Both the position numbers and the translations under genes were made by a program. The notes under the pieces are model-generated. The model was not told the origin of the DNA and did no database searches. It was given only the letters and a program-made list of their open reading frames with translations. From Patescibacteria group bacterium (lineage in GTDB: Bacteria > Patescibacteriota > JABMPQ01 > JAQVVF01): DNA of 64,000 nt. Shown piece by piece: positions 4,848 through 62,387 of the stretch. Each line of letters starts with the position of its first letter. Positions within the stretch are counted from its first letter, which is position 1. The DNA lies in NCBI GenBank assembly GCA_041662665.1, contig JBAZSC010000002.1, positions 5,735-69,734 of the forward strand, read 5' to 3'.

Positions 4848-5585
4848 TTATTCACTTGAAAAAGGAGTGCAATTCGATCTAAGATTTACAATCTTTTCCA
4901 CTAAATCTTTTTTATCAATATCTGTTTTTCTTTTATCATCAGCCCAAATAAAAACAACCCACCGATCAATTTTATCATATCCACTAGCAGAAACTAATGA
5001 CCTAAATTCCATTCTGTATTTTTTCTGATCTAAATAAACTTCAAAAGAAACTGTACAAAAATGATTTTTTCCTCTGCAAACAACTTCAACATGTTTATTA
5101 TAATAGGCAAAACATCTATAGCGCACTAAAGAAAGTTCTGACCTCACAAAATTTCTTGTATCTTCATTTACCTCTTTATCTTTATCCAACATCACTCTAA
5201 TCCAATTTATTTTTATTTTTCGTTTCAAAACTTTTTTGTCGGAAACAATTTCATCATTTGTTTCTATCACTCTAAACTTATTGCGTTCTACATAAGGTAC
5301 GCTTAGCAATGAAGGATTAATATGTTCAGTTTCATCTTCAGTCTTTCGATAATTTGTTTTTTCAACAATGACAACTTCTTTTTCCGACCAATTAATCCCT
5401 AATCCAAGAATTAGAAATATGATTGTTAAAATAACAAAGCTTAAAAATTCTATTCTTTTTCTCATCCATAAAAAAACAAACCTATCTTTAATTTGCGCTT
5501 TCTTGCCTTTTATTAATTCCGCCATAATAGGCCTAAAACTATTTACAACAACTTTAACAAAGCTAATTTGCCTATTTAACCACAT
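4848..5585 (-). CDS. hypothetical membrane-anchored protein
   Basis: Hydrophobic N-terminal segment 'FLSFVILTIIFLILGLGI'. Internal Met starts are possible. Confidence 0.45.
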   Translation of the reverse strand: MWLNRQISFVKVVVNSFRPIMAELIKGKKAQIKDRFVFLWMRKRIEFLSFVILTIIFLILGLGINWSEKEVVIVEKTNYRKTEDETEHINPSLLSVPYVERNKFRVIETNDEIVSDKKVLKRKIKINWIRVMLDKDKEVNEDTRNFVRSELSLVRYRCFAYYNKHVEVVCRGKNHFCTVSFEVYLDQKKYRMEFRSLVSASGYDKIDRWVVFIWADDKRKTDIDKKDLVEKIVNLRSNCTPFSSE

Positions 5586-5778
5586 CTTGTCCCTCCTTTT
5601 TCAAAGAACGATATTTATATTTAAAAAAATTTGAAATTTATATTTATTATAATTTTATTTAACAACAAAATCAACGAAAGCGAAACGAAAATTCGAAAAA
5701 AGTATTCGCTTATATTCGCAAAAGCATTAGAGTGAGGCCAAAAAAAAGAAGCCATAACAGCTTCAATACAAAGAACGC

Positions 5779-5973
5779 TTAACCTCTGATTTTCAAAAAA
5801 TATTCCATCTTATCTCTTGGCCTCATGCGAGTTGGACGAAACTTTCGTTGAGTTTTTGATTCAAACGGAACATCATTTCGTCTTTCTTTCATCAAGCAAA
5901 CATCGGAATTTTCTGAAATCGGCTCAAGAATATGAAAGAAAAAAATCAACAAAACATCATCTGCGCTCAACAT
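5779..5973 (-). CDS. small protein, third gene of the GC-rich CDCQ cassette
   Basis: SD 'GAGGAGG' lies 7 nt upstream of the ATG at 5973. It overlaps the upstream gene's stop by 7 nt. It contains an 'SENSDVCLM' segment. Confidence 0.5.
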   Translation of the reverse strand: MLSADDVLLIFFFHILEPISENSDVCLMKERRNDVPFESKTQRKFRPTRMRPRDKMEYFLKIRG

Positions 5974-6335
5974 TTTTGTACCTCCTCTCTTGTTCTCTCT
6001 GGCACAATCAAATACTCATGTCTTAATCTCTTTCCCAAAAATAATGCATAAAAATCGCCATCAATATCAGCTAACCTGTTATCAGAAGATACAACATAAT
6101 TCCAATTCTGCGCGCAAGTCAGATCCTGAAAAGGATTAAACTTGCTCACAACTTGGCAATCACATTCAATCTTCAATACTCTAAAAAACACAATCAATCT
6201 TCCAATGTTGATTCTTCTCACACTATTTGAATCCAAATTGTTGGTTTCAACTATGGCACGAGTTTGAGAAAAATCATGTCCATTTTGACAACAATCCCGA
6301 GTACACAATTGCTGAAAAAATACCTCCACTTTCAT
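5967..6335 (-). CDS. small Cys-rich protein with an 'ECDCQVV' motif; paralog of 6337-6684
   Basis: A perfect SD 'AAGGAGG' lies 6 nt upstream of the ATG at 6335, inside the end of the preceding gene. The start is 1 nt after the upstream stop. GC-rich. Confidence 0.6.
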   Translation of the reverse strand: MKVEVFFQQLCTRDCCQNGHDFSQTRAIVETNNLDSNSVRRINIGRLIVFFRVLKIECDCQVVSKFNPFQDLTCAQNWNYVVSSDNRLADIDGDFYALFLGKRLRHEYLIVPERTREEVQKC

Positions 6336-6336
6336 C

Positions 6337-6684
6337 TCAAGCCTCCTTTGAACCCAATCTCAACAAAAAAGGAAAGCTATTAGGAGCAAATTCTTTTGGA
6401 AATTCATCTTCTCTTCGAAACCAAACCACAAATCCCCTTCCATTAATTCTCCTTGAAACACCTTGCGTGCACAATTTCCATTGTTCAGACAAATATTCAT
6501 TTTCCAAACTCAAACAGATAATTTGACAATCACATCTCACTCCAATTTCCATCAAAAATTCAATCACCCTATTGGTCATCAAAGAATGTTCCAATGCAAT
6601 CTCTCTAGCCAGAACTAACCCATGCTTGCCATTATGACAATATTTGCCTCTAGAAACCAGCTCAACGAATTCTCCGAACTCCAT
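6337..6684 (-). CDS. small Cys-rich protein with an 'RCDCQII' motif; first gene of the cassette
   Basis: The track ORF is 6337..6762. The start at 6684 (MEFGEF) is preferred because it has the SD 'GGAGGGAAAGGAA'. The leader is conserved with that of the 62265 gene. Confidence 0.55.
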   Translation of the reverse strand: MEFGEFVELVSRGKYCHNGKHGLVLAREIALEHSLMTNRVIEFLMEIGVRCDCQIICLSLENEYLSEQWKLCTQGVSRRINGRGFVVWFRREDEFPKEFAPNSFPFLLRLGSKEA

Positions 6685-6923
6685 TTCCTTTCCCTCCATT
6701 GCCCGCCGTAGCTTCAGCGAAGGTGGGCAAGCCGCCATATCCTTGGCGGACTTTCTGTCCATCGCGCTATTTTAAGAACAAAAAAATGACATCAAATGTC
6801 AAAGAACATATCGATAGTATATCTTAATTAAATATTTTGTCAAGAAAAGAATCCACAAAATAAAGCTGAATTTTTCTTATCATATCTTAAAAAATAAAAA
6901 GGAACTATAAAATAGTTCCAAAA

Positions 6924-7310
6924 TTAGTGCGACCAATGTTCTTCAAAAGGACCAGTTGCTCGTAAATCGCCATGCGAATTATATTGAGCTCCTCTCAAAC
7001 CAAGCAAAGCACGTGCCATAGCCAATCTTTGTTCACGTTCCAATAATTCTTTCTCAAATACTACCGCAACTACTCCTCCATGCTTCATCACATATTCACG
7101 CTCCAACTGCAATTCTTTCTTCAACTCCAATATTTTTTCACGAGGAAAATTTGCATTATCAATTTCCTCTTCGCTAAAAAAAACAAAGATAATCATTCCA
7201 TCCTTAACACTTTGACACCAACGTTCCTCCCACCACTTTATTACTTTTTCTCTCATTTCCATAGGCCATTCTGCTTTCTCAAAATCTTCACGATTCTTGA
7301 TTTCTATCAT
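6924..7310 (-). CDS. hypothetical protein
   Basis: 128-aa ORF rich in charged helical sequence. The leader contains hairpins. Confidence 0.45.
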   Translation of the reverse strand: MIEIKNREDFEKAEWPMEMREKVIKWWEERWCQSVKDGMIIFVFFSEEEIDNANFPREKILELKKELQLEREYVMKHGGVVAVVFEKELLEREQRLAMARALLGLRGAQYNSHGDLRATGPFEEHWSH

Positions 7311-7359
7311 CTCTCTTCCTCCTTCGCAGGCAATTCGCCTGCTTTTTCTACCGCACTAA

Positions 7360-18989: not shown

Positions 18990-19574
18990 TTAATTTTTAA
19001 CACTAAAATAAAGTGGTGTCTTAAAAAGACCAACCTTTGCCAATGGCCAACCTCGAAGCCAAACGCGACCAATTAGATTTGCTTTTGGCAACGGACCCCA
19101 AATTCTTGAATCACTGCTCGCTTTTCTATTATCACCCAACACAAAAAATTCATTATCTTTGACTGTATAATCAATTCTGCCAGGCGTCTTTAAATCAGCA
19201 GGCAGATAGCTTTCGTCAACAGAAATTCCTTCAGAATGATCTTGGTTGTATATCTTAACACTTCCATTAAAAATTTCAAGTCTTTCACCTGGCAATCCAA
19301 TAATCCTCTTAATAAAAAATTGGGATGGATCTTTTGGATACTTAAAAATAACCACATCTCCTCTCTTTGGTTTTTCAAAACGATAGCTTATTTCATCAAC
19401 AATTAGATACTGACCATCTGAAAAATTCGGTTCCATGCTCTCACCTCTAACAAAAAAAGGCTGAAATAAAAAATATCTAACTGGAATAATAATTGCTAAA
19501 GAAATTAAAATTATTTTCACTAATTCAACAACAAATTCTTTTGTTGAAGTTTTTTGTACTATTTTTGTTTCCAT
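18990..19574 (-). CDS. lepB: signal peptidase I
   Basis: 'GESMEP', 'GDNRKASSDSR'. Start set at METKIV with SD 'GGAGGAG'. The track ORF begins at 19643. Confidence 0.85.
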   Translation of the reverse strand: METKIVQKTSTKEFVVELVKIILISLAIIIPVRYFLFQPFFVRGESMEPNFSDGQYLIVDEISYRFEKPKRGDVVIFKYPKDPSQFFIKRIIGLPGERLEIFNGSVKIYNQDHSEGISVDESYLPADLKTPGRIDYTVKDNEFFVLGDNRKASSDSRIWGPLPKANLIGRVWLRGWPLAKVGLFKTPLYFSVKN

Positions 19575-19667: not shown

Positions 19668-21083
19668 TTGACATCACTTAGCAACAACTTATATAATATA
19701 TCTATTATGATAAAACTAAATGATCAAAAATTAAAAATGCTAAAGAAAAATATTGTTCCTATATTCTTAATTATTTTTTTATTAATAACTTCTCTTATTT
19801 CTTTTAAGTTTTTTTCAATTGGAAAAAGTGTTTTTAAAGTCACAGCTAATACTTCTTTGTTAGGCCAGCTCCAAAAATTTATTATTCCTAATAAAAAATT
19901 AAAAGGCGAAAAAGAAAAAAGAACAAATATTTTACTTCTTGGAGTAGGTGGCGAAGGACATGATGGCGCGATGCTTACTGATACAATTATCATTTTCAGC
20001 ATTAAATATGAAAATGATAAACCAAGAGTAGCATTGATTTCTATTCCTCGAGATCTTTATGTAAACTTAAAAGATTTCGGCAATACAAAAATCAATAGCG
20101 TTTATGCTCTTGATAAAGACAGCAATCCTGATTCGAACAGAATTATTAAATCAATTGAAGGCGTTACTGGTTTACCAATTCATTATTATATTCAAGCTGA
20201 TTTTGAAGGCTTTAAAAAAGCCGTTGATGCTGTTGGCGGAATTGATGTTAATGTTGAACATAGTTTTGTTGACGACAAATATCCAACTAATAATTTTGGC
20301 GTAGAAACAATTTCTTTTGAAAAAGGATTAAATCACATGGATGGAGAAACAGCTCTAAAATATTCTCGCTCTCGACATGGAGTGGTTACTGATAAATCAG
20401 AAGCTTTTGAAGCAAATGATAGCGCTAGAGCAAAAAGACAACAACAAATTCTTTATGCCTCCAAAGAAAAAACAATGTCAGTTTCAACGATTAGCAATCC
20501 TAAAAAAATTAATGATCTTCTAGGCATCCTCGGTGATCATATCAGAACAAATTTAGAATTATGGGAAATGTTAAAACTCGGCGAACTTGCAAAAAATATT
20601 GATTCAAGTGACCTAAAAAATCATGTCTTAGATGATTCTCCAAATGGTTTACTTTATGCTTCAACAAGTCCTAATGGTTCATTCATTTTCTTGCCAAAAT
20701 CAAATGATTTTACAGAAATACATCATTACTGCAAAAATGTTTTTGAACCAAAACAAGAGGATATTGAAACTGCTAATATTAAAGTTCTTAATGGAACAGA
20801 AACTCCAAATCTTGCGCAAGAAGCATCAGCATTAATTGCCTACGACAATATAAAAGTATTAGCTCTTGACAATGCTTCAAAAATAGATTATAACAAAACG
20901 ATAGTCTATGATTATTCAAATGGCAAAAAACCAAATACTATCGAATTTTTAAAAAACAGATTTAATGCAAAAGTTATTAAATCAACAACAATTCCGAAAG
21001 AATATAATAATGATAATAGCAAAATAGACATTATCATGATTATTGGCAAAAATTTTTCGCAATTACCTCATTATGAATACTAA
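19668..21083 (+). CDS. LytR-CpsA-Psr (LCP) family cell-envelope transferase
   Basis: N-terminal TM segment; 'ILLLGVGGEGHDGAMLTDTIII...ISIPRDLYV'. Confidence 0.8.
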   Translation: MTSLSNNLYNISIMIKLNDQKLKMLKKNIVPIFLIIFLLITSLISFKFFSIGKSVFKVTANTSLLGQLQKFIIPNKKLKGEKEKRTNILLLGVGGEGHDGAMLTDTIIIFSIKYENDKPRVALISIPRDLYVNLKDFGNTKINSVYALDKDSNPDSNRIIKSIEGVTGLPIHYYIQADFEGFKKAVDAVGGIDVNVEHSFVDDKYPTNNFGVETISFEKGLNHMDGETALKYSRSRHGVVTDKSEAFEANDSARAKRQQQILYASKEKTMSVSTISNPKKINDLLGILGDHIRTNLELWEMLKLGELAKNIDSSDLKNHVLDDSPNGLLYASTSPNGSFIFLPKSNDFTEIHHYCKNVFEPKQEDIETANIKVLNGTETPNLAQEASALIAYDNIKVLALDNASKIDYNKTIVYDYSNGKKPNTIEFLKNRFNAKVIKSTTIPKEYNNDNSKIDIIMIIGKNFSQLPHYEY

Positions 21084-22407
21084 CGTCGTTATCATCGGCA
21101 GACCAAACTGCGGTAAATCAACACTTTTTAACAAACTAGTTGGAAGAAGCAGATCTGTTACATCGCCTATCGCTGGAACGACAAGAGACGTCGTTAATGG
21201 AAGTACTAGCTGGAAAGGAAAAGTATTTACCATTTTTGACACTGGCGGATTCGAATACAAAGTTAAAGCACAAGATGTAATAAATAAAAGTGTCCAAGAT
21301 CAAATTCAATTCGCTTTAAAAAAAGCGGATATTATTTTGTTTATAACTAATATCAAGACAGGCATTACTGCTCCAGATATTAGTTTTTCAAAAGAATTAA
21401 AAAAAATCAAGAAACCAATAATTCTAGTTGCCAACAAAGCTGATAATGATGATCTAAGAGAAAGAGGCCAAGAAATGTTAAGTCTAGGACTAGGAGAGCC
21501 ACAAATAATTTCAGCCTTAACTAGTTCTGGCATTGGTGATCTATTAGACAAAATTTCTTCTTTGATTAAAAAAACAAAAGAATCAGAAACAGAAGAAACA
21601 GAAATAAAAACAATCAGAGTTGGTTTTTTTGGCAAACCTAATGTCGGTAAATCTTCAATCATTAATGCCTTATTAGGCGAAGAAAAAGTTATAGTCTCTG
21701 ATATTCCAGGAACAACAAGAGATGCAATTGAAAATACAATTGAATACAAAGACAAAAAATTTATTGTCATCGATTCTGCTGGAATAAAAAGAAAAAGAGA
21801 AGCTCGATTTGGAATTGAAAAATTTTCGATTCGAAAAAGTTTGGCTACTATTTTAGATTGCGATGTAATTCTATTTGTTGTTGATTGCGAAGATTTTTTA
21901 TCAAGACAAGACAAAAGAATTTCCGAAAGAATTCTTGAAAGCAAAGCTAGCGTCATCATTGTTGCTAACAAATTTGATCTAATGGAACAAAAACAAAGCA
22001 ATATTGATAAAATAGTAAATTCATTGCGTTTCCATTTTAATTTTCTTTATTTTGCGCCAATTGTTTTTACTTCTGCCAAAACTAATCAAAATATCAAAGA
22101 AATTTTAGATTTATTAATTCTAGCCAACGAAAAAAGAAATCAAATCGTTGATCAAGAAGAATTAACGAAATTTTTATTAGATATTTTAAAAGACTATCCT
22201 CCACATCGCAATAAAAAATCAAAGAAAAGACCAAAATTAATTAGGCTAATTCAATTCAGAACCAACCCTCCAAAATTCAATCTTTATCTAGAAGGACCAG
22301 AAACAATCGCTCCTCAATATTTAAGATTTTTAGAACGAAAAATTCATGAGAAATATGGATTTGAATGTGCTCCAATTCATATTTCTGTAGCAAGAGAAGA
22401 CAAATAA
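21073..22407 (+). CDS. der: ribosome-biogenesis GTPase Der (EngA)
   Basis: Two G domains ('GRPNCGKST', 'GKPNVGKSS') and a C-terminal KH-like domain. The track start at 21043 is a TTG. The ATG at 21073 is preferred. Confidence 0.85.
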   Translation: MNTNVVIIGRPNCGKSTLFNKLVGRSRSVTSPIAGTTRDVVNGSTSWKGKVFTIFDTGGFEYKVKAQDVINKSVQDQIQFALKKADIILFITNIKTGITAPDISFSKELKKIKKPIILVANKADNDDLRERGQEMLSLGLGEPQIISALTSSGIGDLLDKISSLIKKTKESETEETEIKTIRVGFFGKPNVGKSSIINALLGEEKVIVSDIPGTTRDAIENTIEYKDKKFIVIDSAGIKRKREARFGIEKFSIRKSLATILDCDVILFVVDCEDFLSRQDKRISERILESKASVIIVANKFDLMEQKQSNIDKIVNSLRFHFNFLYFAPIVFTSAKTNQNIKEILDLLILANEKRNQIVDQEELTKFLLDILKDYPPHRNKKSKKRPKLIRLIQFRTNPPKFNLYLEGPETIAPQYLRFLERKIHEKYGFECAPIHISVAREDK

Positions 22408-23294: not shown

Positions 23295-23326
23295 AATAAA
23301 AAAAGCTACCACCAAAGCAATAGCTT
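23295..23326 (-). terminator. Rho-independent terminator of the 23325-23831 gene
   Basis: 'agctaccaccaaagcaatagct' hairpin overlapping the stop codon, with a T-run on the minus strand. Confidence 0.6.
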
Positions 23327-23831
23327 AAACTCCAATCAAAGGTACTTGTTCATCATTTATCGAAAGATCTTTTCCGCTAATAATCAAAGTCCTACCGTCT
23401 ACAACAACTGAAACAGTAATACAACCGTAGCTCTGATCAATACTTAGATTCGAAGAAAAACCATATTCTTTTTCAATCTTTTTCTTAAATTTTCGGAAAC
23501 GATCTTTTTCATTTTTGATTTTTTCACGTAAACTCGAATTCACTATTCTTAAAGTAATGATCTCCTTATTCATTCTTTTACTTCGACCTTTTACTAAAAT
23601 ACAGTATGGGTTTAGTAGAATAATCTTATCTGTATATGTAACACTAAAATATGAACCTGAATCTGTACGCATAATAACACTGCCACTTATACTTCCATAA
23701 GAAGCATCCTTGATTACACGCGCTTTTTCAAGACCAGATGGGCAATTAACACCACCTCTAATTTCCCATTCACCAGTGCTTAAAAACTCAATAAATTGTT
23801 TAGCGTTCAATCTTTCCTCGCCCTTCTCCAT
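23325..23831 (-). CDS. unknown-function protein, paralog of 23936-24488 ('GEWEIRGG' family)
   Basis: Strong SD 'AAGGAGGGAGAGGAAG'. Shares its N-terminal motif and overall architecture with the neighbouring gene. Confidence 0.65.
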   Translation of the reverse strand: MEKGEERLNAKQFIEFLSTGEWEIRGGVNCPSGLEKARVIKDASYGSISGSVIMRTDSGSYFSVTYTDKIILLNPYCILVKGRSKRMNKEIITLRIVNSSLREKIKNEKDRFRKFKKKIEKEYGFSSNLSIDQSYGCITVSVVVDGRTLIISGKDLSINDEQVPLIGV

Positions 23832-23909
23832 CTTCCTCTCCCTCCTTGTGTTTCGGTTTCTAGAATAATTTAGTATAGCAAATCAAAATATATAATCAAG
23901 ATTTTAAAA

Positions 23910-23937
23910 ATAAAAAAACTGTCACAAAGTAACAGTT
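23910..23937 (-). terminator. Rho-independent terminator of the 23936-24488 gene
   Basis: 'aactgt...acagtt' hairpin plus T-run on the minus strand. Confidence 0.5.
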
Positions 23938-24488
23938 AACAAAGATCGATTTTTGGCATCATTCTACCATTCAAATACAAACGTCCTCTGAAAAACTCAA
24001 TTCTCAAGCTCTTATCGCCACAACGAATCGTTACTTTCTGCTCATCATCGACATCAATACTTGTCAAAACCGAACCAATAAGATCATTCGAAATTCCAAC
24101 CACTTGTTTGCGTAAAGCATAACGACGCTGATTCTTTGCTCTACGCTTTCTTTTTTCATCAACTTCCTTTACTACTTGCTGCGATTTCTTATCCAATTCC
24201 AGATTCCGAATCTTCATAATTGCAACGGAACCACGACGTACTGTCACTGCACAATCCTTTATCATAAAGATATCATCTCTAACCGTAATGAGATAATTTT
24301 TACACATATCATCATTAAACATACGAACTCCAGCACCAATCTGAGTTTCTTCAAAAAAAAGACGAGACAATGTAATAGGTCTTGATTCACCTAAATAGAA
24401 AGTGCCACCTACCAACGACCACCCACCCATCCTTAATAGCTCAACAAATACCTTTAAATCCAACGATTTCTCCGTCATTGCCTTTTCC
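23936..24488 (-). CDS. unknown-function protein, paralog of 23325-23831 ('GGWSLVGG')
   Basis: Start set at MTEKSLDL (24488) with SD 'AAAGGAGGAAAAGG'. The track ORF extends to 24550. Confidence 0.65.
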
Positions 24489-45564: not shown

Positions 45565-45643
45565 TCTTTCTCTCCTCCTTTTCTCGTTGTTAAAGTACGA
45601 TATCTAATCTCCGTAATTTCCGAATTTCCAAATATCCGAATAT

Positions 45644-46453: not shown

Positions 46454-46561
46454 AAATTTGACTTGACGAACTATTCTAATATCTTAATATGAATTAAACA
46501 AGGCTTTTTCTCGTACCCTAGCAAAAGCCCGCTTTCGCCATAGTTCAATGGCAAGCGGACA

Positions 46562-47272
46562 ATGGAGGAAAAAGTGATCATCCAACCAAAAGTAAGATTA
46601 TATAGGCCATCAATTTATGATATCATTGCAATCACAGGAGCAAGTGGATCAGGCAAGGGAGAGGTTGCAAAAAAAATTATTGCTGCTGTTGGCGAAGAGT
46701 ACGTTGGGCATAACGAATTAGATAATTTTTATCTTGATCGCAGCGATATGCCTCCAGAAGAAAGAGAGAAGCTGGATTTTGATGATCCTAATAATTCTCT
46801 TGATTGGTTCGAAGTTATTCATTTTGTAATGTGCTTAAAGGAAGGAAAACCTGTTGAAATGCCTCTATACGATTTCGACAGCCATACTAGAGTTACCAGG
46901 CCAGAGCCACTCATCATCACGCCAAAACGCTTTAATCTTATTGACAGCCATATGGCTCTTTGGCATCCAAAACTTAGAACACTTTACCGCAAAAAACTAT
47001 TTGTTGATCCAACACTAGATATTTGCGGTTTCAGAAGACAAGATAGAGATACTAGACCCAAAGAAGAAGGTGGTCGTGGCAGAACGAATGAATCAGTTCG
47101 CAAACAATGGCCAAAAGTTAGTCGTGCCTTCAAAATTCACTTCGAACCAACCAAAGAATTTGCTAACATAATTATTCCCGAAGGCGGCAACAACGAAGAG
47201 GGAATTGATTTTATTATCGGTTGGATGAAATATCAAATCATGATCGAAGCTCAACAAACTCAAACAGCCTAA
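46562..47272 (+). CDS. uridine kinase / PRK-family nucleoside kinase-like protein
   Basis: P-loop 'ITGASGSGKG'. 'RRQDRDTRPKEEGGRGRTNESV' resembles the Udk 'RRxxRDxxERGR' region. GC-rich. Possible GTG start at 46574. Confidence 0.55.
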   Translation: MEEKVIIQPKVRLYRPSIYDIIAITGASGSGKGEVAKKIIAAVGEEYVGHNELDNFYLDRSDMPPEEREKLDFDDPNNSLDWFEVIHFVMCLKEGKPVEMPLYDFDSHTRVTRPEPLIITPKRFNLIDSHMALWHPKLRTLYRKKLFVDPTLDICGFRRQDRDTRPKEEGGRGRTNESVRKQWPKVSRAFKIHFEPTKEFANIIIPEGGNNEEGIDFIIGWMKYQIMIEAQQTQTA

Positions 47273-47288
47273 ACGCTCATTCACTCAA

Positions 47289-47351
47289 AAGTCCAAACCT
47301 TAGTCTGGACTTTTTCTTTGTCCGCCGAAGTTTTAACGAAGGCGGATTTTT
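47289..47351 (+). terminator. tandem Rho-independent terminators after the udk-like gene
   Basis: Hairpin agtcca/tggact plus T-run, then 'tccgcc-gaagttttaacgaa-ggcgga' plus 'ttttt'. Confidence 0.6.
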
Positions 47352-47395
47352 ATTCGAAAATTAATTCGATTTATTCGAAAATTAATTAGAGTATT

Positions 47396-50300
47396 TTATA
47401 CAACTATATTAATCAATCTTCCCTTTACAAAAATCATTTTCTTAATCTTTTTTCCAACAATATATTTCATAATCTTTTCTCTCTTTTGCACAAGTTCACT
47501 TGCCTTCTCTTCAGAAATATTTGTATCAACTTCCATAAAATCTCTCACTTTGCCATTGATCTGAATAATCATTTTAACTTTTTCTTCTTTCATTTTACTT
47601 TCATCAAATAATGGCCAAGATGCTTTAAAAACACTTTCCTTATTCCCAAGCGTCTCCCACATTTCTTCACAAAAATGCGGAGCAAAAGGAGACAAAATAA
47701 TTAACAAAGTCTCTATATCAATTTTAGAAATTTTATCTTTTTGCTTATCTAACAAATTCAAAAATTCCATTGATGATGCAATGATCGTATTATAATCCAA
47801 TTCCTCAACATCATGAGTTGCTTTTTTGATTAATTTATTTCTCTGAATAACAAACACATCATCCTGAGTACCTAAGGAACTAAGTACCTGAGAAACTAAA
47901 AAGAAAAGTCTACCAAAAAAACGCTCAATTCCAACAACACCTTCATCTCTAAAATCGCCACCTTGTTTTAATGGTCCGATAAACATCAAATAAGTCCTCA
48001 AAACATCAGCGCCATATTTTTCAATATATAGATCAGGATTTACAACGTTACCTTTTGATTTTGACATCTTGGCACCATCTTTAATAATCAAACCATGCGC
48101 TCGAAATTTTTTAAAAGGCTCTTCAAAATCAATCATCCCTAAATCATGTAAAACCATTGTCACAAATCTTGTATAAAGTAAATGAAGTACAGCATGCTCA
48201 TGTCCGCCAATATACATATCAACTGGCAACCATTTTTTTGTAATCTCTTTATCAAAAGGCTGATCTTTTATATCAACACTTGGATATCTCAAAAAATACC
48301 AAGATGAATCTAAGAATGTATCTGAGACATCAGTTTCTCTTTTTGCCTCTCCTCCACATTTTGGACATTTCGTATTAACAAATTCCAAATTTCGAGCAAG
48401 AGGCGATCGATCAGTTCCGTCAGGCAAATAATCATCAGTCTTTGGCAACATTACTGGCAAATCTTCTTCTGGAACTGGAATTATACCGCTATTTATAGAA
48501 TCAGGAAATTCAAAAAGTATTTCCGGCAATTCTTTAATACCAGCAGTCTCATTGAAATGTCCTTTATTCTTAAATACACTAACTTTAGCATTTAAGACTT
48601 CATAGTCCTTTTTAACTTCTAAAGGAATATATGGATCATTATCAGACAAGTAAATTACTTTTTCTTTAACTAATTTAGACAGTTCATCTAATCCGATATT
48701 CAGTTCATTGAATTCCTTAATGATTGCTAATGCCTCGTCATCACAACCAGCATTCTTCAAATTATTCCAATTTAACTCACCTTGACTATTCCCAGTAGGT
48801 GCAACTAAAATCAATTTTTCAATATTTAACTTATTTTTCAATGCAAACTGGCAAGCAGCTGGAGCACCCAAACTATGGCCAATTAAATATATCTGGTCAT
48901 CTTTTTTAATCGGTAATTTTTCCAGCGCAGAAATCCATTCATTCATCTTCGGATGCTCATTATTTGGCAAATCAGGAATTAAAACTTCATAGCCTCTATT
49001 TTCCATTTCTTGTTTAAACCAAGGGAACCAATTTTCTTTAGAATGACCATAAATTCCGTGCACTAAAATAATTTTTGGCTTTCTCTTAGCACAACTTTCA
49101 CAATAAACGATTGGAATTGGCGGTCCCCAAAATCTTTGTCTAGAAATACACCAATCGCGTAATTTATAATTAACCACTCTCTGACCCCAACTTTTTTTTT
49201 CTAAGTAGTCCATTATTTTTTTAGTCGCATCATGAATATCTAAACCATTCAAAAAATCAGAATTAATCATTTTTCCTTCTTTTTCTTGAACCTGTTTTGC
49301 TTCTATAATTTCTGAAGTATCATTATCTTTTCCAATAACAACTCGGATAATCGGCAATTTAAATTTCTTTGCAAATTCAAAATCTCTGATATCATGACCA
49401 GGCACACCGACAACTGCACCAGTACCTACATTTCCCAAAACAAAATCAGATACCCAAATCGGCATTTTCTTACCTGTCAAATTATTAATACAATAAGCTC
49501 CAGTAAAAACGCCTGTTTTTTCTCGTCCCTCTTCAATTCTGTCTTGTTCACTTTTTGCTAATGATTTCTTAACATAATCTTCAACTTCTTTTTTATGCTC
49601 ATCAGTAACCATCTCATTCAAAACTTTACTTTCTGGCGCCAATACTACAAATGTCGCACCAAAATTAGTATCTGGTCGCGTTGTAAAACAAATTATTTTC
49701 TTGTCACTGTCAACAATTTTGTATTCAATTTCTATGCCTTCTGACTTTCCAATCCAATTTTTCTGCGCTAATTTTGTCTTTTCTGTCCAATCAATTTTAT
49801 CAATATTTTTTAATAATTTTTCAGCATAATCAGTAATCTTGAAAAACCATTGGCTCATATCTTTTTTTACAACTTCTGTTTTACATCTTTCACATAAACC
49901 AGCTTCAACTTGCTCATCAGACAAAACAGTCATACAAGAAGGACACCAATTCACAGCTGCTTTCTTTTTGTATGCCAATCCTCTTTTGTACATCTGCAAA
50001 AATAGCCATTGCGTCCATTTATAATAATTTGGATCATAGGTTTCCAAAGTCTTTGACCAATCATAAGCATTACCTATCATGTGTAATTGTTCATAAAATC
50101 TTTTCTGAGTTTTTTCTGCCATCACTGCTGGATGAATCTTATTTTTAATTGCAAAATTTTCTGAATGGATACCAAAACCATCCAATCCAATTGGTTCAAA
50201 AACATCATTGCCCTTTAATCTTTGATAGCGTCCATAAATGTCTGATCCAGTAAAAGCGTACATATTTCCAACATGCAAACCTTCAGCAGATGGATATGGA

Positions 50301-50416
50301 AACATCATCAAATTATAAAAAGGTTTGGCAGATTTTTTAACATCAACCTGATAAAGCTTTTCTTCATCCCATTTTTTCTGCCACTTTTTTTCTATTTTTT
50401 TAAAATCATATTTCAT
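47396..50416 (-). CDS. leuS: leucyl-tRNA synthetase carrying an internal YdeN/RBBP9-like alpha/beta serine-hydrolase domain insertion
   Basis: 'HVGNM' (HIGH variant), CP1 editing motifs 'TTRPDT' and 'GTGAVVGVPGHDIRD', 'ISRQRFWGPPIP', 'KMSKS', anticodon-binding and C-terminal domains. About 190 aa are inserted between 'PIPIVYC' and 'IPVPEEDLPV'. Confidence 0.9.
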   Translation of the reverse strand: MKYDFKKIEKKWQKKWDEEKLYQVDVKKSAKPFYNLMMFPYPSAEGLHVGNMYAFTGSDIYGRYQRLKGNDVFEPIGLDGFGIHSENFAIKNKIHPAVMAEKTQKRFYEQLHMIGNAYDWSKTLETYDPNYYKWTQWLFLQMYKRGLAYKKKAAVNWCPSCMTVLSDEQVEAGLCERCKTEVVKKDMSQWFFKITDYAEKLLKNIDKIDWTEKTKLAQKNWIGKSEGIEIEYKIVDSDKKIICFTTRPDTNFGATFVVLAPESKVLNEMVTDEHKKEVEDYVKKSLAKSEQDRIEEGREKTGVFTGAYCINNLTGKKMPIWVSDFVLGNVGTGAVVGVPGHDIRDFEFAKKFKLPIIRVVIGKDNDTSEIIEAKQVQEKEGKMINSDFLNGLDIHDATKKIMDYLEKKSWGQRVVNYKLRDWCISRQRFWGPPIPIVYCESCAKRKPKIILVHGIYGHSKENWFPWFKQEMENRGYEVLIPDLPNNEHPKMNEWISALEKLPIKKDDQIYLIGHSLGAPAACQFALKNKLNIEKLILVAPTGNSQGELNWNNLKNAGCDDEALAIIKEFNELNIGLDELSKLVKEKVIYLSDNDPYIPLEVKKDYEVLNAKVSVFKNKGHFNETAGIKELPEILFEFPDSINSGIIPVPEEDLPVMLPKTDDYLPDGTDRSPLARNLEFVNTKCPKCGGEAKRETDVSDTFLDSSWYFLRYPSVDIKDQPFDKEITKKWLPVDMYIGGHEHAVLHLLYTRFVTMVLHDLGMIDFEEPFKKFRAHGLIIKDGAKMSKSKGNVVNPDLYIEKYGADVLRTYLMFIGPLKQGGDFRDEGVVGIERFFGRLFFLVSQVLSSLGTQDDVFVIQRNKLIKKATHDVEELDYNTIIASSMEFLNLLDKQKDKISKIDIETLLIILSPFAPHFCEEMWETLGNKESVFKASWPLFDESKMKEEKVKMIIQINGKVRDFMEVDTNISEEKASELVQKREKIMKYIVGKKIKKMIFVKGRLINIVV
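48509..49081 (-). other. inserted serine-hydrolase (YdeN/PF06821-like) domain within leuS
   Basis: 'KIILVHGIYGHSKENWFPWFK', nucleophile elbow 'LIGHSLGA', 'LSDNDPYIP', 'NKGHFNETAG'. It is in frame and has no intein-like C...HN boundaries. Confidence 0.7.
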
Positions 50417-50462
50417 AGTATTCGAAAAATAATTCGATAAATTCGAAAATTAATTAGAGTGT

Positions 50463-50705
50463 TTAATTCGGTAATTCTTTCTCTTTCTTCTTTTTAATTA
50501 CTGGCCTTTCCTTTGGCATGCCTGGATTAAAAGGATTTTCATTCTTTTTTTCCTTGTTTGGAATTATTTCCAATTCCGACTCAGGACCATATTCTGGACG
50601 CTGAGGTCTTTCCTCGCGTTCTTCCTGTTCTCGTTTTTCATCTTGTTTTGGAACTCCCATTTCATTCTCATCTTCGCCAAAAATATTTACTTTTTCTACT
50701 GACAT
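50463..50705 (-). CDS. small K/E/P-rich disordered protein (doubtful)
   Basis: 80-aa low-complexity ORF with no SD. Confidence 0.25.
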   Translation of the reverse strand: MSVEKVNIFGEDENEMGVPKQDEKREQEEREERPQRPEYGPESELEIIPNKEKKNENPFNPGMPKERPVIKKKKEKELPN

Positions 50706-58395: not shown

Positions 58396-59370
58396 TTATG
58401 TCTCTTTTTTTGCTAAATTTTCATTTAAATATAATTGATAATCAAGCCTTGCCTGAATTTTTAATGTTTCTTCAAAATTGGCTAAAAGATCTGGATAGGC
58501 TGCATATCTATCCAATTTTCTCGCATTATCTTCCCTCAAATTCATCAAAAACCAATCTTCGCCTTTTTCTTTTTCCTTCATTTCTTCACTATCTGTTCTT
58601 ATCCATCTATTTCTTCCATTTCTTTTTGCCATATAAGCAGCAAAATCAGCATCTTTTCTTTCATCAACAAATGGCATTTTACTATCTTCTTTATGAATTA
58701 TTTTTACTCCAATACTTGCAGTTAAATTACCTAAATCATGCCCTAAATCAATTGAACGAACAGAATCCATGAAACGATTCATTACTTTATCAATATCTCC
58801 TTCCTTTACTCTTGTTAATGCAAAACAAAATTCATCGCCTCCACCCATTCTACCGCCAAAATCAGTTTTCCTTCTCTTTGACATCGAAACCTCTCCAAAT
58901 TCTCCGACTTTAAGATCAGCAGCATCATGACCTAAAATATCATTTGTTTTTTTAAATTTATCCAAATCAACTGCTAATAACACCAAAACTTCACCAGGCT
59001 TATAATTATCCATATGCTCAATTTCAACATCAAACAATCTAGCAAAAGTTTCTTTTCTCCAAAGACCAGTTAATTCATCCTTTTCGCCATTAATTCTTTC
59101 TTGAGCCATTTCTCGAGCTTGTTCCTTCAAGGATTCTAGCTGTTCTCTAAACACATCCTCTGGCACACCCTTTTTTGCAATAGCCGGACCAAATCGTCTT
59201 TCCATTAAATCTACATAAATTCTTCTCGCTTCTCTGGCCTCTACTCCTTTTCCTCCATCTTCCAATTCTTCAGTAGTTGGAACTTCTTCGATCCCAGGTC
59301 TTGTAAAAGTTCTTCCTTCTTCTCCTCTTTCTTCTTCTGGATTAAATGTAGGCACATCACCTGTTGGCAT
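58396..59370 (-). CDS. GGDEF-domain diguanylate cyclase with a disordered N-terminus
   Basis: 'RMGGGDEFCFAL'. Confidence 0.8.
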   Translation of the reverse strand: MPTGDVPTFNPEEERGEEGRTFTRPGIEEVPTTEELEDGGKGVEAREARRIYVDLMERRFGPAIAKKGVPEDVFREQLESLKEQAREMAQERINGEKDELTGLWRKETFARLFDVEIEHMDNYKPGEVLVLLAVDLDKFKKTNDILGHDAADLKVGEFGEVSMSKRRKTDFGGRMGGGDEFCFALTRVKEGDIDKVMNRFMDSVRSIDLGHDLGNLTASIGVKIIHKEDSKMPFVDERKDADFAAYMAKRNGRNRWIRTDSEEMKEKEKGEDWFLMNLREDNARKLDRYAAYPDLLANFEETLKIQARLDYQLYLNENLAKKET

Positions 59371-59468: not shown

Positions 59469-60791
59469 TTAATATCCTATTTTTTTCTCAAAATAATCTT
59501 TTAATCCCTCAATTTCAACTCTTTCTTGTTCCATTGAGTCTCGATCTCTAACAGTCACTTTTTTATCTTCCAAACTATCAAAATCAATAGTCACACAATA
59601 TGGTGTCCCAATCTCATCTTGTCTTCTGTATAATTTTCCAATACTTCCAGAATCATCATACATTGAAACAAATTTTGTTTTTAAATCATTAAATATTTTT
59701 CTTGCCAAATCAGTAATTTCAGTTTTATTTTTTGCTAATGGTAAAACTGCAATTTTAATAGGTGCAATTTTTGGATGAAATTTTAATACCACTCTAACTT
59801 GATCTTTAACGGATTCTTCATGATAAGCATCTACCAAAAATGCTAAACAAGCTCGATCAGCACCAGCTGAAGTCTCAATAATGTTCGGAACAAATTTTGT
59901 GTTCAGCTTAGTATCGAAATATGACAGGTCTTGTTTTGAAGATTTTGCATGATTAGAAAGATCCCAATCACCACGATCATGAATACCTTCTAATTCTTTA
60001 TTATCAAAAGGAAAATCATATTCAATATCAAAAGCAGCTTTAGCATAATGCGCTAAATCTTCTTTTGCATGTTCATGAAATTTTAATTTTTCTGGATTTA
60101 TGCCAAGATCAACATACCATTGCATTCTCAATTTTTTCCATTCTTCAAAATATTTTTCATTCTCACCTGGTCTTATAAAAAATTGTTGCTCCATTTGTTC
60201 AAATTCTCTCATTCTGTAAGTAAAATTACCTGGTGTAATTTCATTGCGAAAAGCTTTTCCAATTTGTGCAATACCAAAAGGAATCTTTGGTCTCATTGTA
60301 TCTAAAACATTTTTAAAATTAACATAAATACCTTGGCAAGTTTCAGCCCGAAGATAAGTAATACTTGAATCATTTTCAAGTGGACCAACAAATGTCTTCA
60401 TCATTAAATTAAATTTTCTAACCTCGCCCAATTCACCACCACATTCTGGACATTTTGTAATTGCTTGCTCCTTCAAATGATCTGCGCGAAACCTTTTGTT
60501 GCATTTTTTACATTCTGCCATTGGGTCTGCAAAACCAGCTGACAAATGGCCAGATGCATACCAAACTTTTGGCGACATTAAAATCGAAGCATCTAATCCG
60601 ACAATGTCTTCTCGATCATGAACCATTGTTTTCCACCATTGTTGCTTAATATTATTTTTTAATTCAACTCCAATTGGACCGTAATCATAACAAGAAGAAA
60701 ATCCACCATAAATTTCTGAAGACGGAAATATAAATCCGCGTCTTTTTGCTAATGATACAATTTTATCCATTAAATTTTCCATATAAATCAC
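59469..60791 (-). CDS. glyQS: glycyl-tRNA synthetase (dimeric GlyQS type)
   Basis: 'VSLAKRRGFIFPSSEIYGG'; class II motifs and anticodon-binding domain. The true start is probably at MENLMDK (60782). Confidence 0.9.
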   Translation of the reverse strand: MIYMENLMDKIVSLAKRRGFIFPSSEIYGGFSSCYDYGPIGVELKNNIKQQWWKTMVHDREDIVGLDASILMSPKVWYASGHLSAGFADPMAECKKCNKRFRADHLKEQAITKCPECGGELGEVRKFNLMMKTFVGPLENDSSITYLRAETCQGIYVNFKNVLDTMRPKIPFGIAQIGKAFRNEITPGNFTYRMREFEQMEQQFFIRPGENEKYFEEWKKLRMQWYVDLGINPEKLKFHEHAKEDLAHYAKAAFDIEYDFPFDNKELEGIHDRGDWDLSNHAKSSKQDLSYFDTKLNTKFVPNIIETSAGADRACLAFLVDAYHEESVKDQVRVVLKFHPKIAPIKIAVLPLAKNKTEITDLARKIFNDLKTKFVSMYDDSGSIGKLYRRQDEIGTPYCVTIDFDSLEDKKVTVRDRDSMEQERVEIEGLKDYFEKKIGY

Positions 60792-62265: not shown

Positions 62266-62387
62266 CTCCTTCCTCCCTTGTCCGCCGAAGTTCCGCAGAA
62301 CGAAGGCGGAATTTGTCCACCTAGCTCCGCAGAGCGAAGGCGAACTCGTTGTCCACCTAGCTAAACGAAAGCAAAAACGAACATTGT
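62266..62387. repeat. GC-rich leader with two tandem ~34-nt repeats and a CCGCC...GGCGG hairpin module
   Basis: 'ccgcagaRcgaaggcgRa' x2 and 'tgtccacctagct' x2, alternating. Confidence 0.7.

Follow-up and report, generated by a model that had tools for sequence, protein, structure and literature searches.

A short GC-rich hairpin repeat resembling mobile DNA beside ribosome-binding sites of a Patescibacteria genome

We analyzed a 64-kb stretch of a Patescibacteria genome (64,000 nucleotides of contig JBAZSC010000002.1, assembly GCA_041662665.1; referred to as the window) in which two unrelated genes, one for a FAD-dependent oxidoreductase (the FAD gene) and the other a CDCQ/DUF2695-like gene (CDCQ-A), had been noted to share a GC-rich leader. 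The flagged sequences probably belong to a repeat family, short GC-rich hairpins with the behavior of mobile or selfish DNA in the manner of repetitive extragenic palindromic (REP)/REPIN sequences and Rickettsia palindromic elements (RPEs), and this family is apparently undescribed so far. Since the copies lie in untranslated regions (UTRs), three of them before a GGAGG Shine-Dalgarno (SD) sequence, the apparent conserved leader is a repeat followed by a generic strong SD. An earlier note had offered two readings, a shared regulatory RNA element or a small palindromic repeat family. The second agrees with what we find, namely a hairpin present in many phyla, filled and empty sites, tandem and inverted arrays and copies in frame within genes.

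Both leaders are found as quoted on the minus strand, and a global alignment from hairpin to ATG gives 38 identical columns out of 52 (73%, close to the ~75% first reported). The accompanying plus-strand module, CCGCCG(A/T)AG ... CGAAGG(Y)GG, occurs at three places, 6703-6726, 47322-47345 and 62282-62309, and lies well above chance: CCGCCGWAG occurs 3 times vs 0.05 expected and CGAAGGYGG 4 times vs 0.12, and no shuffle reached either count.

Hairpin copies in the window

The window is AT-rich (31% GC), with most genes on the minus strand, and holds 4-6 units of the element, none of them an intact copy within a coding sequence. One intact copy (unit 1; 62277-62310, minus strand) forms the leader of the FAD gene and scores 47 bits (E=5e-10) against a covariance model (CM) whose seeds were chosen by exact pattern and whose E-values, here and below, come from a shortened calibration and are hence rough. 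It reads TCCGCC-TTC-GTTCTGCGGAAC-TTC-GGCGG-ACAAG, with the apical part G-TTCTGCGGAA-C, and directly adjoins the SD GGAGGA (62276-62271) of the gene, which starts with the ATG at 62265-62263. Two more tandem units at 62311-62381 (minus strand), progressively decayed towards AT, follow in the spacer between tgt and the FAD gene: unit 2 (62311-62346) is AGTTCGCCTTCGCTCTGCGGAGCTAGGTGGACAAAT and unit 3 (62347-62381) is TTCGTTTTTGCTTTCGTTTAGCTAGGTGGACAACG. Together the three units, each ~34-36 nt, fill nearly the whole of this intercistronic spacer, and Tandem Repeats Finder (TRF) reports 62277-62362 with a period of 34, 2.4 copies and 80% matches. A CRISPR array was ruled out, as the units at 62277-62381 run head-to-tail without spacers. 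A sequence at 5670-5700 (minus strand), TTCGTTTCGCTTTCGTT, upstream of the open reading frame (ORF) 4848-5585, is similar to the AT-decayed unit 3 (TTCGTTTTTGCTTTCGTTT) and may be a further, fully decayed copy.

A second intact copy (47316-47346, minus strand; 46.3 bits, E=8e-10) lies in the 3' UTR of leuS within the convergent udk/leuS spacer, between the leuS stop (47396) and an AT-rich bidirectional terminator hairpin (47288-47313). It reads TCCGCC-TTC-GTTAAAAC-TTC-GGCGG-ACAAAG, with the apical part G-TTAAAA-C, and its 28-nt core (CCGCC...GGCGGACAA) is identical in another Patescibacteria metagenome-assembled genome (MAG; L040) and in a Pirellulales MAG (L129).

The 5' UTR of CDCQ-A carries copy B (6701-6730, minus strand; CM match 6694-6730, 37.7 bits, E=1.3e-7), which reads TTGCCCACC-TTC-GCTGAAGC-TAC-GGCGGGC (= TTG CCCACC TTC G-CTGAAG-C TAC GGCGGG C, 6730-6701) and corresponds, with slight decay, to the family variant CCGCCTTCGCTGAAGCTTCGGCGGACAA with the GCTGAAGC-type loop. 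Beside it, a hairpin scan finds hairpin A (6731-6751, minus strand; 6-bp stem), GTCCGCC-AAGGATAT-GGCGGC, which has the CCGCC/GGCGG arms of the element without its internal loop or apical stem and may be a truncated copy; the two form a doublet (6701-6751). A promoter-like TTGACA-16-TATACT lies upstream at 6843-6816, which places the hairpins inside the 5' UTR. The likely true start of CDCQ-A is the ATG at 6684-6682, behind the SD GGAGGG (6697-6692). Two upstream ATGs (6699-6697 and 6762-6760) are probably spurious, because translation from them would run through the hairpin as '...PPSLKLRRA...'. The public gene model of CDCQ-A, P0121 (133 aa), uses an upstream start and translates part of the hairpin; such ORFs ('PPSLKLRRA' at 6762; P0121) are probably too long and thus likely annotation errors.

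Finally, a decayed copy precedes udk (46527-46562, plus strand) with a weak CM match at 46525-46567 (10.5 bits, E ~1). It reads GCCCGC-TTTC-GCCATagttcaATGGC-AA-GCGG-ACAA and is followed by TGGAGGAAAAAGTG, which contains the SD and a likely GTG start. The copy folds as a hairpin (z=-3.0), and a promoter-like site at 46463-46490 puts it inside the udk 5' UTR.

Spread, anatomy and insertion sites

We scanned one genome per GTDB species for the exact pattern CCGCCTTCG-N(4-30)-CTTCGGCGGACAA (22 fixed bases) and obtained at least 120 matching stretches vs ~2-4 estimated by chance even in GC-rich DNA. Among the matches listed there are at least 13 phyla, with near-identical arms and a locus GC of 34-73%. 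The hosts among these matches include Bradyrhizobium, the genus with the most matches, and other Alphaproteobacteria, Gammaproteobacteria, Acidobacteriota, Planctomycetota, Verrucomicrobiota, Bacteroidota (including the isolate Niastella populi), Elusimicrobia, Armatimonadetes, Bdellovibrionales, Thermoleophilia, Myxococcota, Nitrospiraceae, Omnitrophota and six named Patescibacteria lineages, among others, and their commonest form is the 28-mer CCGCCTTCGCCAAGGCTTCGGCGGACAA. The exact pattern was also found in 12 IMG/VR contigs. Rfam 15 identified only a tRNA in the window at the gathering threshold, and nothing credible at E<=10 in the FAD spacer or at E<=1 in six family loci. Further, blastn of the 34-nt consensus against the PLSDB plasmids gave chance-level partial matches only. 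Full-text literature searches found neither the DNA or RNA strings of the element nor its encoded peptides, and nothing relevant on palindromic repeats in Patescibacteria; the REP papers that surfaced do not contain the element sequence.

The copies share one layout: T, CCGCC, TTC, a variable apical stem-loop bounded by G and C, TTC, GGCGG and an unpaired ACAAG tail. The GC stem of 5-7 bp is thus followed by a symmetric 3x3 mismatched internal loop of pyrimidines (TTC opposite TTC) and a closing G-C pair. Among the matches listed, 92% of copies have T at position -1 and 90% have G behind ACAA; neither base was fixed by the search pattern, so that the minimal unit is 30 nt, and units are typically 30-37 nt long. 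The ACAA of the tail was itself fixed by the pattern, and the other strand reads CTTGT / TGTC, not GTAG. In 54 sequences, pairing reaches 97% in the 5-6 bp basal stem and the apical stem. Apical stems of different length and sequence (CCAAGG, CTAAAG, CTGAAG, CCCGAAGGCGGG, CTCTTCGAG and others) keep their complementarity: pair 18-32 occurs as CG in 46 sequences and as UA in 7, and pair 19-31 as CG in 22, UA in 14, GC in 4 and UG in 3. None of 500 shuffles reached the covariation score observed at these two alignable apical pairs. Coding constraint was ruled out as the cause of the conservation, as unit lengths of 27-52 nt are not confined to multiples of three, and a reading as a miniature inverted-repeat transposable element was ruled out on anatomy.

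The contexts of copies elsewhere were read in 8-kb blocks, and several genomes hold 2-3 copies per block. There are four copies in 21 kb of the relative L008 and none in 21 kb of another, L006. Inverted pairs lie 4-200 nt apart in L040, L044, L056 and L060, and tandem arrays occur in L059, in L079 and in the window itself (62277-62381). Other hairpins, among them terminators, tRNA 3' ends and the REPs of Bradyrhizobium, stand beside some copies or are nested with them. The window tRNA-Leu begins with GCCGAAGTGGCGGAA and some Patescibacteria copies adjoin tRNA 3' ends; a tRNA-derived origin was set aside, since the resemblance is short and most copies are away from tRNAs. In a low-GC gammaproteobacterial MAG (L044, 5400-5590) a variant hairpin whose arms resemble an SD (CCCTCC...GGAGGG) comes after a tRNA gene, and behind it stand an inverted consensus copy and a 22-nt duplicate of the tRNA 3' end; the arrangement has the look of an att-type duplication that encloses a REPIN-like doublet.

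Comparison with close relatives (L002-L008, whose core proteins are ~85-94% identical to those of the window) and with a CDCQ orthologue in L143 revealed filled and empty sites. The L143 protein is 71% identical to that of the window, and the promoter and hairpin A, kept there as GTCCGCCAAGGATGTGGCGGC, are common to both, while L143 lacks copy B: it reads GGCGGC|AACGGAGGG vs GGCGGC[TTGCCCACCTTCGCTGAAGCTACGGCGGGC]AATGGAGGG in the window. Copy B is a clean 30-nt insertion relative to L143. A 34-nt unit likewise stands in the leader of a GGDEF gene in L004 and L008, at exactly the same insertion point with a boundary ambiguity of 1 nt. The site is empty in L006 (GAGTATA|TAATTTT) and in the window, where the spacer has diverged, and the gene behind the L004 and L008 copies is SD-less. 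The GGDEF protein (window 58396-59370) is 86% identical between L004 and L008 and only 54-68% identical in other pairs, with the neighboring core proteins 88-98% identical; this pattern of identities indicates an allelic replacement within the clade.

The tgt-FAD spacer, with three units in the window, has one orthologous unit in L008 and none in L002/L003, L004/L005 or L006/L007, so that only one of the four distinct related spacers has a copy. A small ORF occupies the place of the element in L002 (4798-4990), L004 (7750-7926) and L006 (9801-9980). It encodes a small, Cys-rich membrane protein of 58-59 aa that ends in a Cys motif, ...C(N/D)FCNNSGIVGGCPCPKCLDPRGPFFD, and is missing in the window (62266-62387) and in L008. 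L008 alone carries an extra copy between the stop codon of a GlyRS-like gene and its terminator, as well as a second, decayed copy of 37 nt that lies in frame within the GlyRS-like gene itself and reads EE[SVFASKGASTDK]ESKD. At the site of this insertion the GlyRS-like gene of the window (59808-59813, minus strand) has TCCGTT (Ser-Val), the first six bases of the L008 copy, vs AAAGTA in L004 and L006, and TCCGTT may be what an in-frame deletion left behind of an old insertion. Among close relatives the boundaries of gain and loss are clean, with an ambiguity of at most 1-2 nt.

Elsewhere, copies of 30, 36 or 39 nt stand in frame within genes whose proteins pass Pfam thresholds. They include a P-type ATPase (L062), where the copy is translated as the peptide SAFAKASADK, a Roizmanbacteria LeuRS with two copies (L046), a Niastella ABC ATPase (L012), a Kaiserbacteria MgsA in which the copy is read in another frame as RLRQGFGGQ (L069), and a PMT-type glycosyltransferase with a copy in antisense orientation (L101). 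The L008 GlyRS-like synthetase with its decayed copy also passes the Pfam threshold.

We propose, with low confidence, that the hairpin would be spread by a trans-acting enzyme that recognizes it in folded, single-stranded form by its internal loop and ACAAG tail. An HUH/Y1 transposase like RAYT or those of IS200/IS605 could fill this role, with precise excision and insertion without target duplication. Copies would have landed in untranslated regions of this Patescibacteria genome and would then have decayed through its AT-biased mutation. Once in a transcript, the hairpin might lend the mRNA stability or insulation, or might compete for the SD, as a by-product and not as the reason for its existence.

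Several observations weigh against a mobile repeat. We saw no transposase between the two kilobase-spaced inverted pairs that were inspected (L142 and L122), where the ORFs encode a phage capsid-type protein and a Ser/Thr kinase, and the number of copies in the 64 kb is modest. At the GGDEF leader, filled and empty states coincide with divergent alleles, so that recombination without transposition in situ could account for this one site. The near-identity of the 30-mer across phyla is unlike classical REPs, which are lineage-specific. Moreover, all copies seen in the clade (those at the four window loci and another five in L004 and L008) run in the sense of the local transcript, three window copies adjoin an SD, and the hairpin followed by ACAAG-GGAGG-ATG recurs before diverse genes in metagenomes; a selected role at the RNA level is therefore possible.

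A broader picture, which we offer tentatively and regard as possible rather than probable, is that of a hitherto undescribed pan-bacterial 30-nt mobile hairpin (CCGCC/GGCGG arms, conserved 3x3 TTC/TTC loop, free apical stem, ACAAG tail) that is active, or was so recently, in more than 12 phyla, genome-reduced Patescibacteria included. It would insert precisely without target duplication, also in frame in essential genes such as those for aminoacyl-tRNA synthetases, and would be spread by a travelling HUH-type enzyme, by phages (the 12 IMG/VR contigs) or by a universal host function. In the SD-poor Patescibacteria it might have been co-opted as a portable 'hairpin + strong SD' initiation module.

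Shine-Dalgarno association and competing explanations

Of the 61 window ORFs with 100 aa or more, only 11 carry GGAGG 5-12 nt before a start, with a common purine-rich spacer. These genes are GC-richer than the others (mean GC 0.353 vs 0.313, p=0.002; mean GC3 0.280 vs 0.217, p=0.0003), which suggests two gene classes in the window, either acquired genes or a distinct translation-initiation class. Examples of strong-SD sites are 5586-5608, 6336-6358, 7311-7333, 23832-23854 and 45565-45587, while tgt, leuS, the GlyRS-like synthetase gene and most of the remaining core genes belong to the SD-less majority. Of the 11 GGAGG-SD genes, three (FAD, CDCQ-A and udk) have the element next to the SD, vs 0 of the 50 others (Fisher p=0.0046), with the copies lying 3-5 nt 5' of the GGAGG; eight other window genes have a GGAGG SD without the element. 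Since FAD, CDCQ-A and udk all belong to the GGAGG-SD class, the 3' third of the 'leader' is a generic SD, and the 'shared leader' is a repeat plus a generic strong GGAGG ribosome-binding site. Tolerated landing sites in very short spacers, a purine-rich target preference or co-option are possible reasons for the adjacency, and a local effect of the element on translation or mRNA stability is possible as well. A different small GC hairpin (gCAGGCgaattGCCTGc; 7311-7350, minus strand) directly adjoins the SD of ORF 6924-7310; the layout of a hairpin followed by an SD is therefore not unique to the element.

The proposal that the repeat travels with GC-rich islands holds in part. The element does adjoin the SD of the GC-richer genes, but the FAD gene is not a recent island: it is syntenic (tgt-FAD-aaRS) and ~40% GC in all relatives fetched, which rules out that reading of it. 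One window copy, moreover, lies in the convergent udk/leuS spacer, and the copies of the relatives stand before the SD-less GGDEF gene.

An alternative that we judge unlikely, if compatible with a mobile origin, is that the hairpin has been co-opted as a cis-acting RNA of the 5' UTR, a stem-loop 3-5 nt before a strong SD. It could serve as a 5'-end stabilizer, as an insulator of the ribosome-binding site or as a switch in which the pyrimidine-rich 5' arm (UCCGCCUUC) pairs with either GGCGGA or the SD (GGGAGGA). Three of the four window copies are indeed sense and adjoin a GGAGG SD, vs none among the 50 SD-less genes. The L008 FAD-leader copy keeps the same position, and its C-to-U changes preserve pairing as G-U. 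In minimum-free-energy folds, both the FAD and the CDCQ leader have the 5' arm paired to the SD, but neither fold surpasses those of shuffled controls (z=+0.23 and -1.23). In metagenomes the hairpin tail is fused to GGAGG in 24 contigs, about half of them with a start codon 4-8 nt downstream (ACAAG-GGAGG-N(4-8)-ATG) and before diverse genes, but the search pattern already contained GGAGG and so selected this arrangement, which makes the count no gauge of enrichment.

The comparison with relatives also argues against a gene-specific leader, the regulatory half of the original proposal. The element is absent from three of the four distinct related FAD spacers and the flagged hairpin from the L143 CDCQ gene. 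Copies in relatives stand before an SD-less gene, after a stop codon and within coding sequence. The CDCQ copy has an A-C mismatch in the mRNA sense, where the other strand would give a G-U pair. No Rfam family matches, and orientation relative to neighboring genes appears unbiased across the family: among the at least 120 loci, crude GC3-based gene calls give 22 '<E<', 15 '>E>', 20 '>E<' and 10 '<E>' contexts. With the mobile repeat as the preferred reading, the FAD and CDCQ genes would not be co-regulated by a dedicated leader RNA, the same repeat having struck both beside ordinary ribosome-binding sites.

Quite improbable is the explanation that the hairpins are transcription terminators or 3'-end exonuclease barriers, like the REP stabilizers of E. 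coli operons, although REP roles in termination and mRNA stabilization are documented (PMC5082802). The positions of the 47316-47346 copy between the leuS stop and a terminator, of the L008 copy between the GlyRS stop and its terminator, and of the FAD array between the cistrons tgt and FAD would suit such a role, as would the excess of convergent (20) over divergent (10) contexts among the at least 120 loci. However, native AT-rich terminators already stand beside the 47320 hairpin and the L008 3' copy, and copies in 5' UTRs and coding sequences cannot terminate. No copy is followed by a U-tract in the mRNA sense, ACAAG standing there instead. The earlier note had named the 47320 hairpin a udk-like terminator, but the consensus terminator scan makes no call there, though the plus strand continues with TTTTTATT. 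Nor does the scan call the family copies at 62277-62381 or 6701-6730; its sole call on a GC hairpin is hairpin A, on the plus strand.

We consider it very improbable that the hairpin is an attC-like recombination site that marks mobile cassettes and moves with the GC-rich genes behind it. The tie to GC-richer strong-SD genes in the window and the co-variation of GGDEF allele and leader hairpin in L004/L008 would fit, and the basal stem, unpaired center and variable terminal structure loosely recall attC. By inspection, however, the consensus lacks the RYYYAAC/GTTRRRY cores, and no integrase was seen around the copies inspected. The CDCQ insert is the 30-nt hairpin alone, with gene and promoter common to L143, the FAD gene is syntenic in all relatives with or without the hairpin, and in-frame copies lie inside housekeeping genes. 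A chance likeness of GC-rich k-mers and SD sequences, which would explain only the generic SD 3' of the hairpin, can be dismissed given 0.05-0.12 motifs expected in shuffles vs 3-4 observed, CM E-values of 1e-7 to 5e-10 and at least 120 near-identical copies elsewhere that are conserved at positions the pattern left free.

Known repeats and neighboring genes

The REP/BIME/REPIN sequences with RAYT of E. coli, Pseudomonas and Stenotrophomonas (PMC3116915, PMC2817692, PMC3479197) resemble the element as GC-rich imperfect palindromes of 20-40 nt with an unpaired foot tag. Like it, they are mostly intergenic, often 3' of genes or next to terminators, form inverted doublets and clusters, differ in presence or absence among close relatives and may have side effects on mRNA stability. 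The element differs from them in its tag, which is ACAAG (CTTGT) and not GTAG, in a stem split by the 3x3 internal loop, in its presence in at least 13 phyla where classical REPs are lineage-specific, in its in-frame gene copies and in that no RAYT has so far been linked to it.

The text of Di Nocera et al. (2013, PMC3733652) describes a superfamily of CGTC/TGTC-tagged REPs that occurs in several phyla and has no dedicated transposase. The other strand of the element likewise starts with TGTC, followed by a 'stem' of ~9 positions and a 4-nt loop, and in Bradyrhizobium the element is nested inside CGTCATTGCGAGCG-type repeats. In contrast, the complementary A/T stem starts and CCA-fitting tails that the text gives for the superfamily are found in no part of the element. 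The strings GTCCGCC, GGCGGAC, CGAAGGCGG and CCGCCTTCG are absent from the text and supplements of PMC3733652; the element may nevertheless be related to this superfamily. Two other palindromes, Br-REP1 and Br-REP2, lie in 3' UTRs and intergenic regions and are transcribed as stem-loops (Hahn et al. 2016, PMC5082802). Their consensuses, CCGGAATCTCGAGATTCCGG and CGAGATTCCGGGTTCGGCTCTTCGAGCCGCCCCGGAATGA, are unlike the element, and they are confined to Bradyrhizobium and Rhodopseudomonas (PMC5082802). By analogy, the element seems most like REP/REPIN in its working and RPE-like in its in-frame insertion.

RPEs (Ogata et al. 2000) reportedly measure ~100-150 bp, occur in Rickettsia only and stand in frame in genes, including essential ones. 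The element resembles them as a selfish palindrome in frame in genes, translated as a tolerated peptide insert, but it differs in both length and host range, being 30-39 nt long and present in at least 13 phyla. Yeast mitochondrial DNA contains GC clusters, which are short GC-rich palindromic hairpins and composition outliers in an AT-rich genome. Hairpin repeats of sponge mitochondrial DNA (PMC2800124) are likewise GC-rich palindromes in an AT-rich genome, intergenic, occasionally genic, and decaying. Unlike the element, both are organellar, and their sequences are unrelated to it.

One 30-mer hairpin common to isolates (such as Bradyrhizobium and Niastella) and MAGs of Acidobacteriota, Planctomycetota, Verrucomicrobiota, Bacteroidota and numerous Patescibacteria is unusual for REP-like DNA. 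If found, the machinery that mobilizes it would explain the persistence of selfish DNA in ~1-Mb genomes, the origin of short Ala/Ser-rich inserts (SAFAKASADK, RLRQGFGGQ) of conserved proteins and one way in which spurious small ORFs recurrently arise in GC-rich genomes. As a marker, the family could reveal horizontal exchange between co-resident soil and freshwater lineages.

Some further features of the genes that carry or neighbor the copies deserve mention. The FAD protein has its next-best homologues beyond its own small clade at ~56-62% identity, and these include many from DPANN-type archaeal MAGs (Woesearchaeota, Aenigmarchaeota, Diapherotrites) and others from further Patescibacteria. 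The leuS gene (47396-50416, minus strand) is flanked by a ~45-nt direct repeat at 47348-47395 and 50418-50465, ATTCGAAAA(T)TAATTCGAT..ATTCGAAAATTAATTAGAGT, in which TRF finds one 12-nt unit common to both sides; the repeat may represent a promoter or operator that was duplicated, or may mark the boundary of a cassette. LeuRS inserts differ within the clade: the window protein (1006 aa; ...ILVHGIYGHSKENWFPW...) and that of L008 (insert at 21157-21368) have a serine-hydrolase/abhydrolase insert, L004 has a NUDIX insert (18999-19301) and L006 has none on record (20438-21353), and the IleRS of relatives carries a His_Phos_1 insert. CDCQ-A, which has a sub-threshold match to DUF2695, and its neighbor CDCQ-B (ORFs 6337-6684 and 5967-6335, respectively, both minus strand) are weak paralogues with 30% identity over 59 aa (E=2.5e-4). 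A similar pair is formed by the ORFs 23325-23831 and 23936-24478 (both minus strand; 23% identity over 129 aa, E=5e-4), and the proteins of both pairs are small and Cys-containing and have strong SDs.

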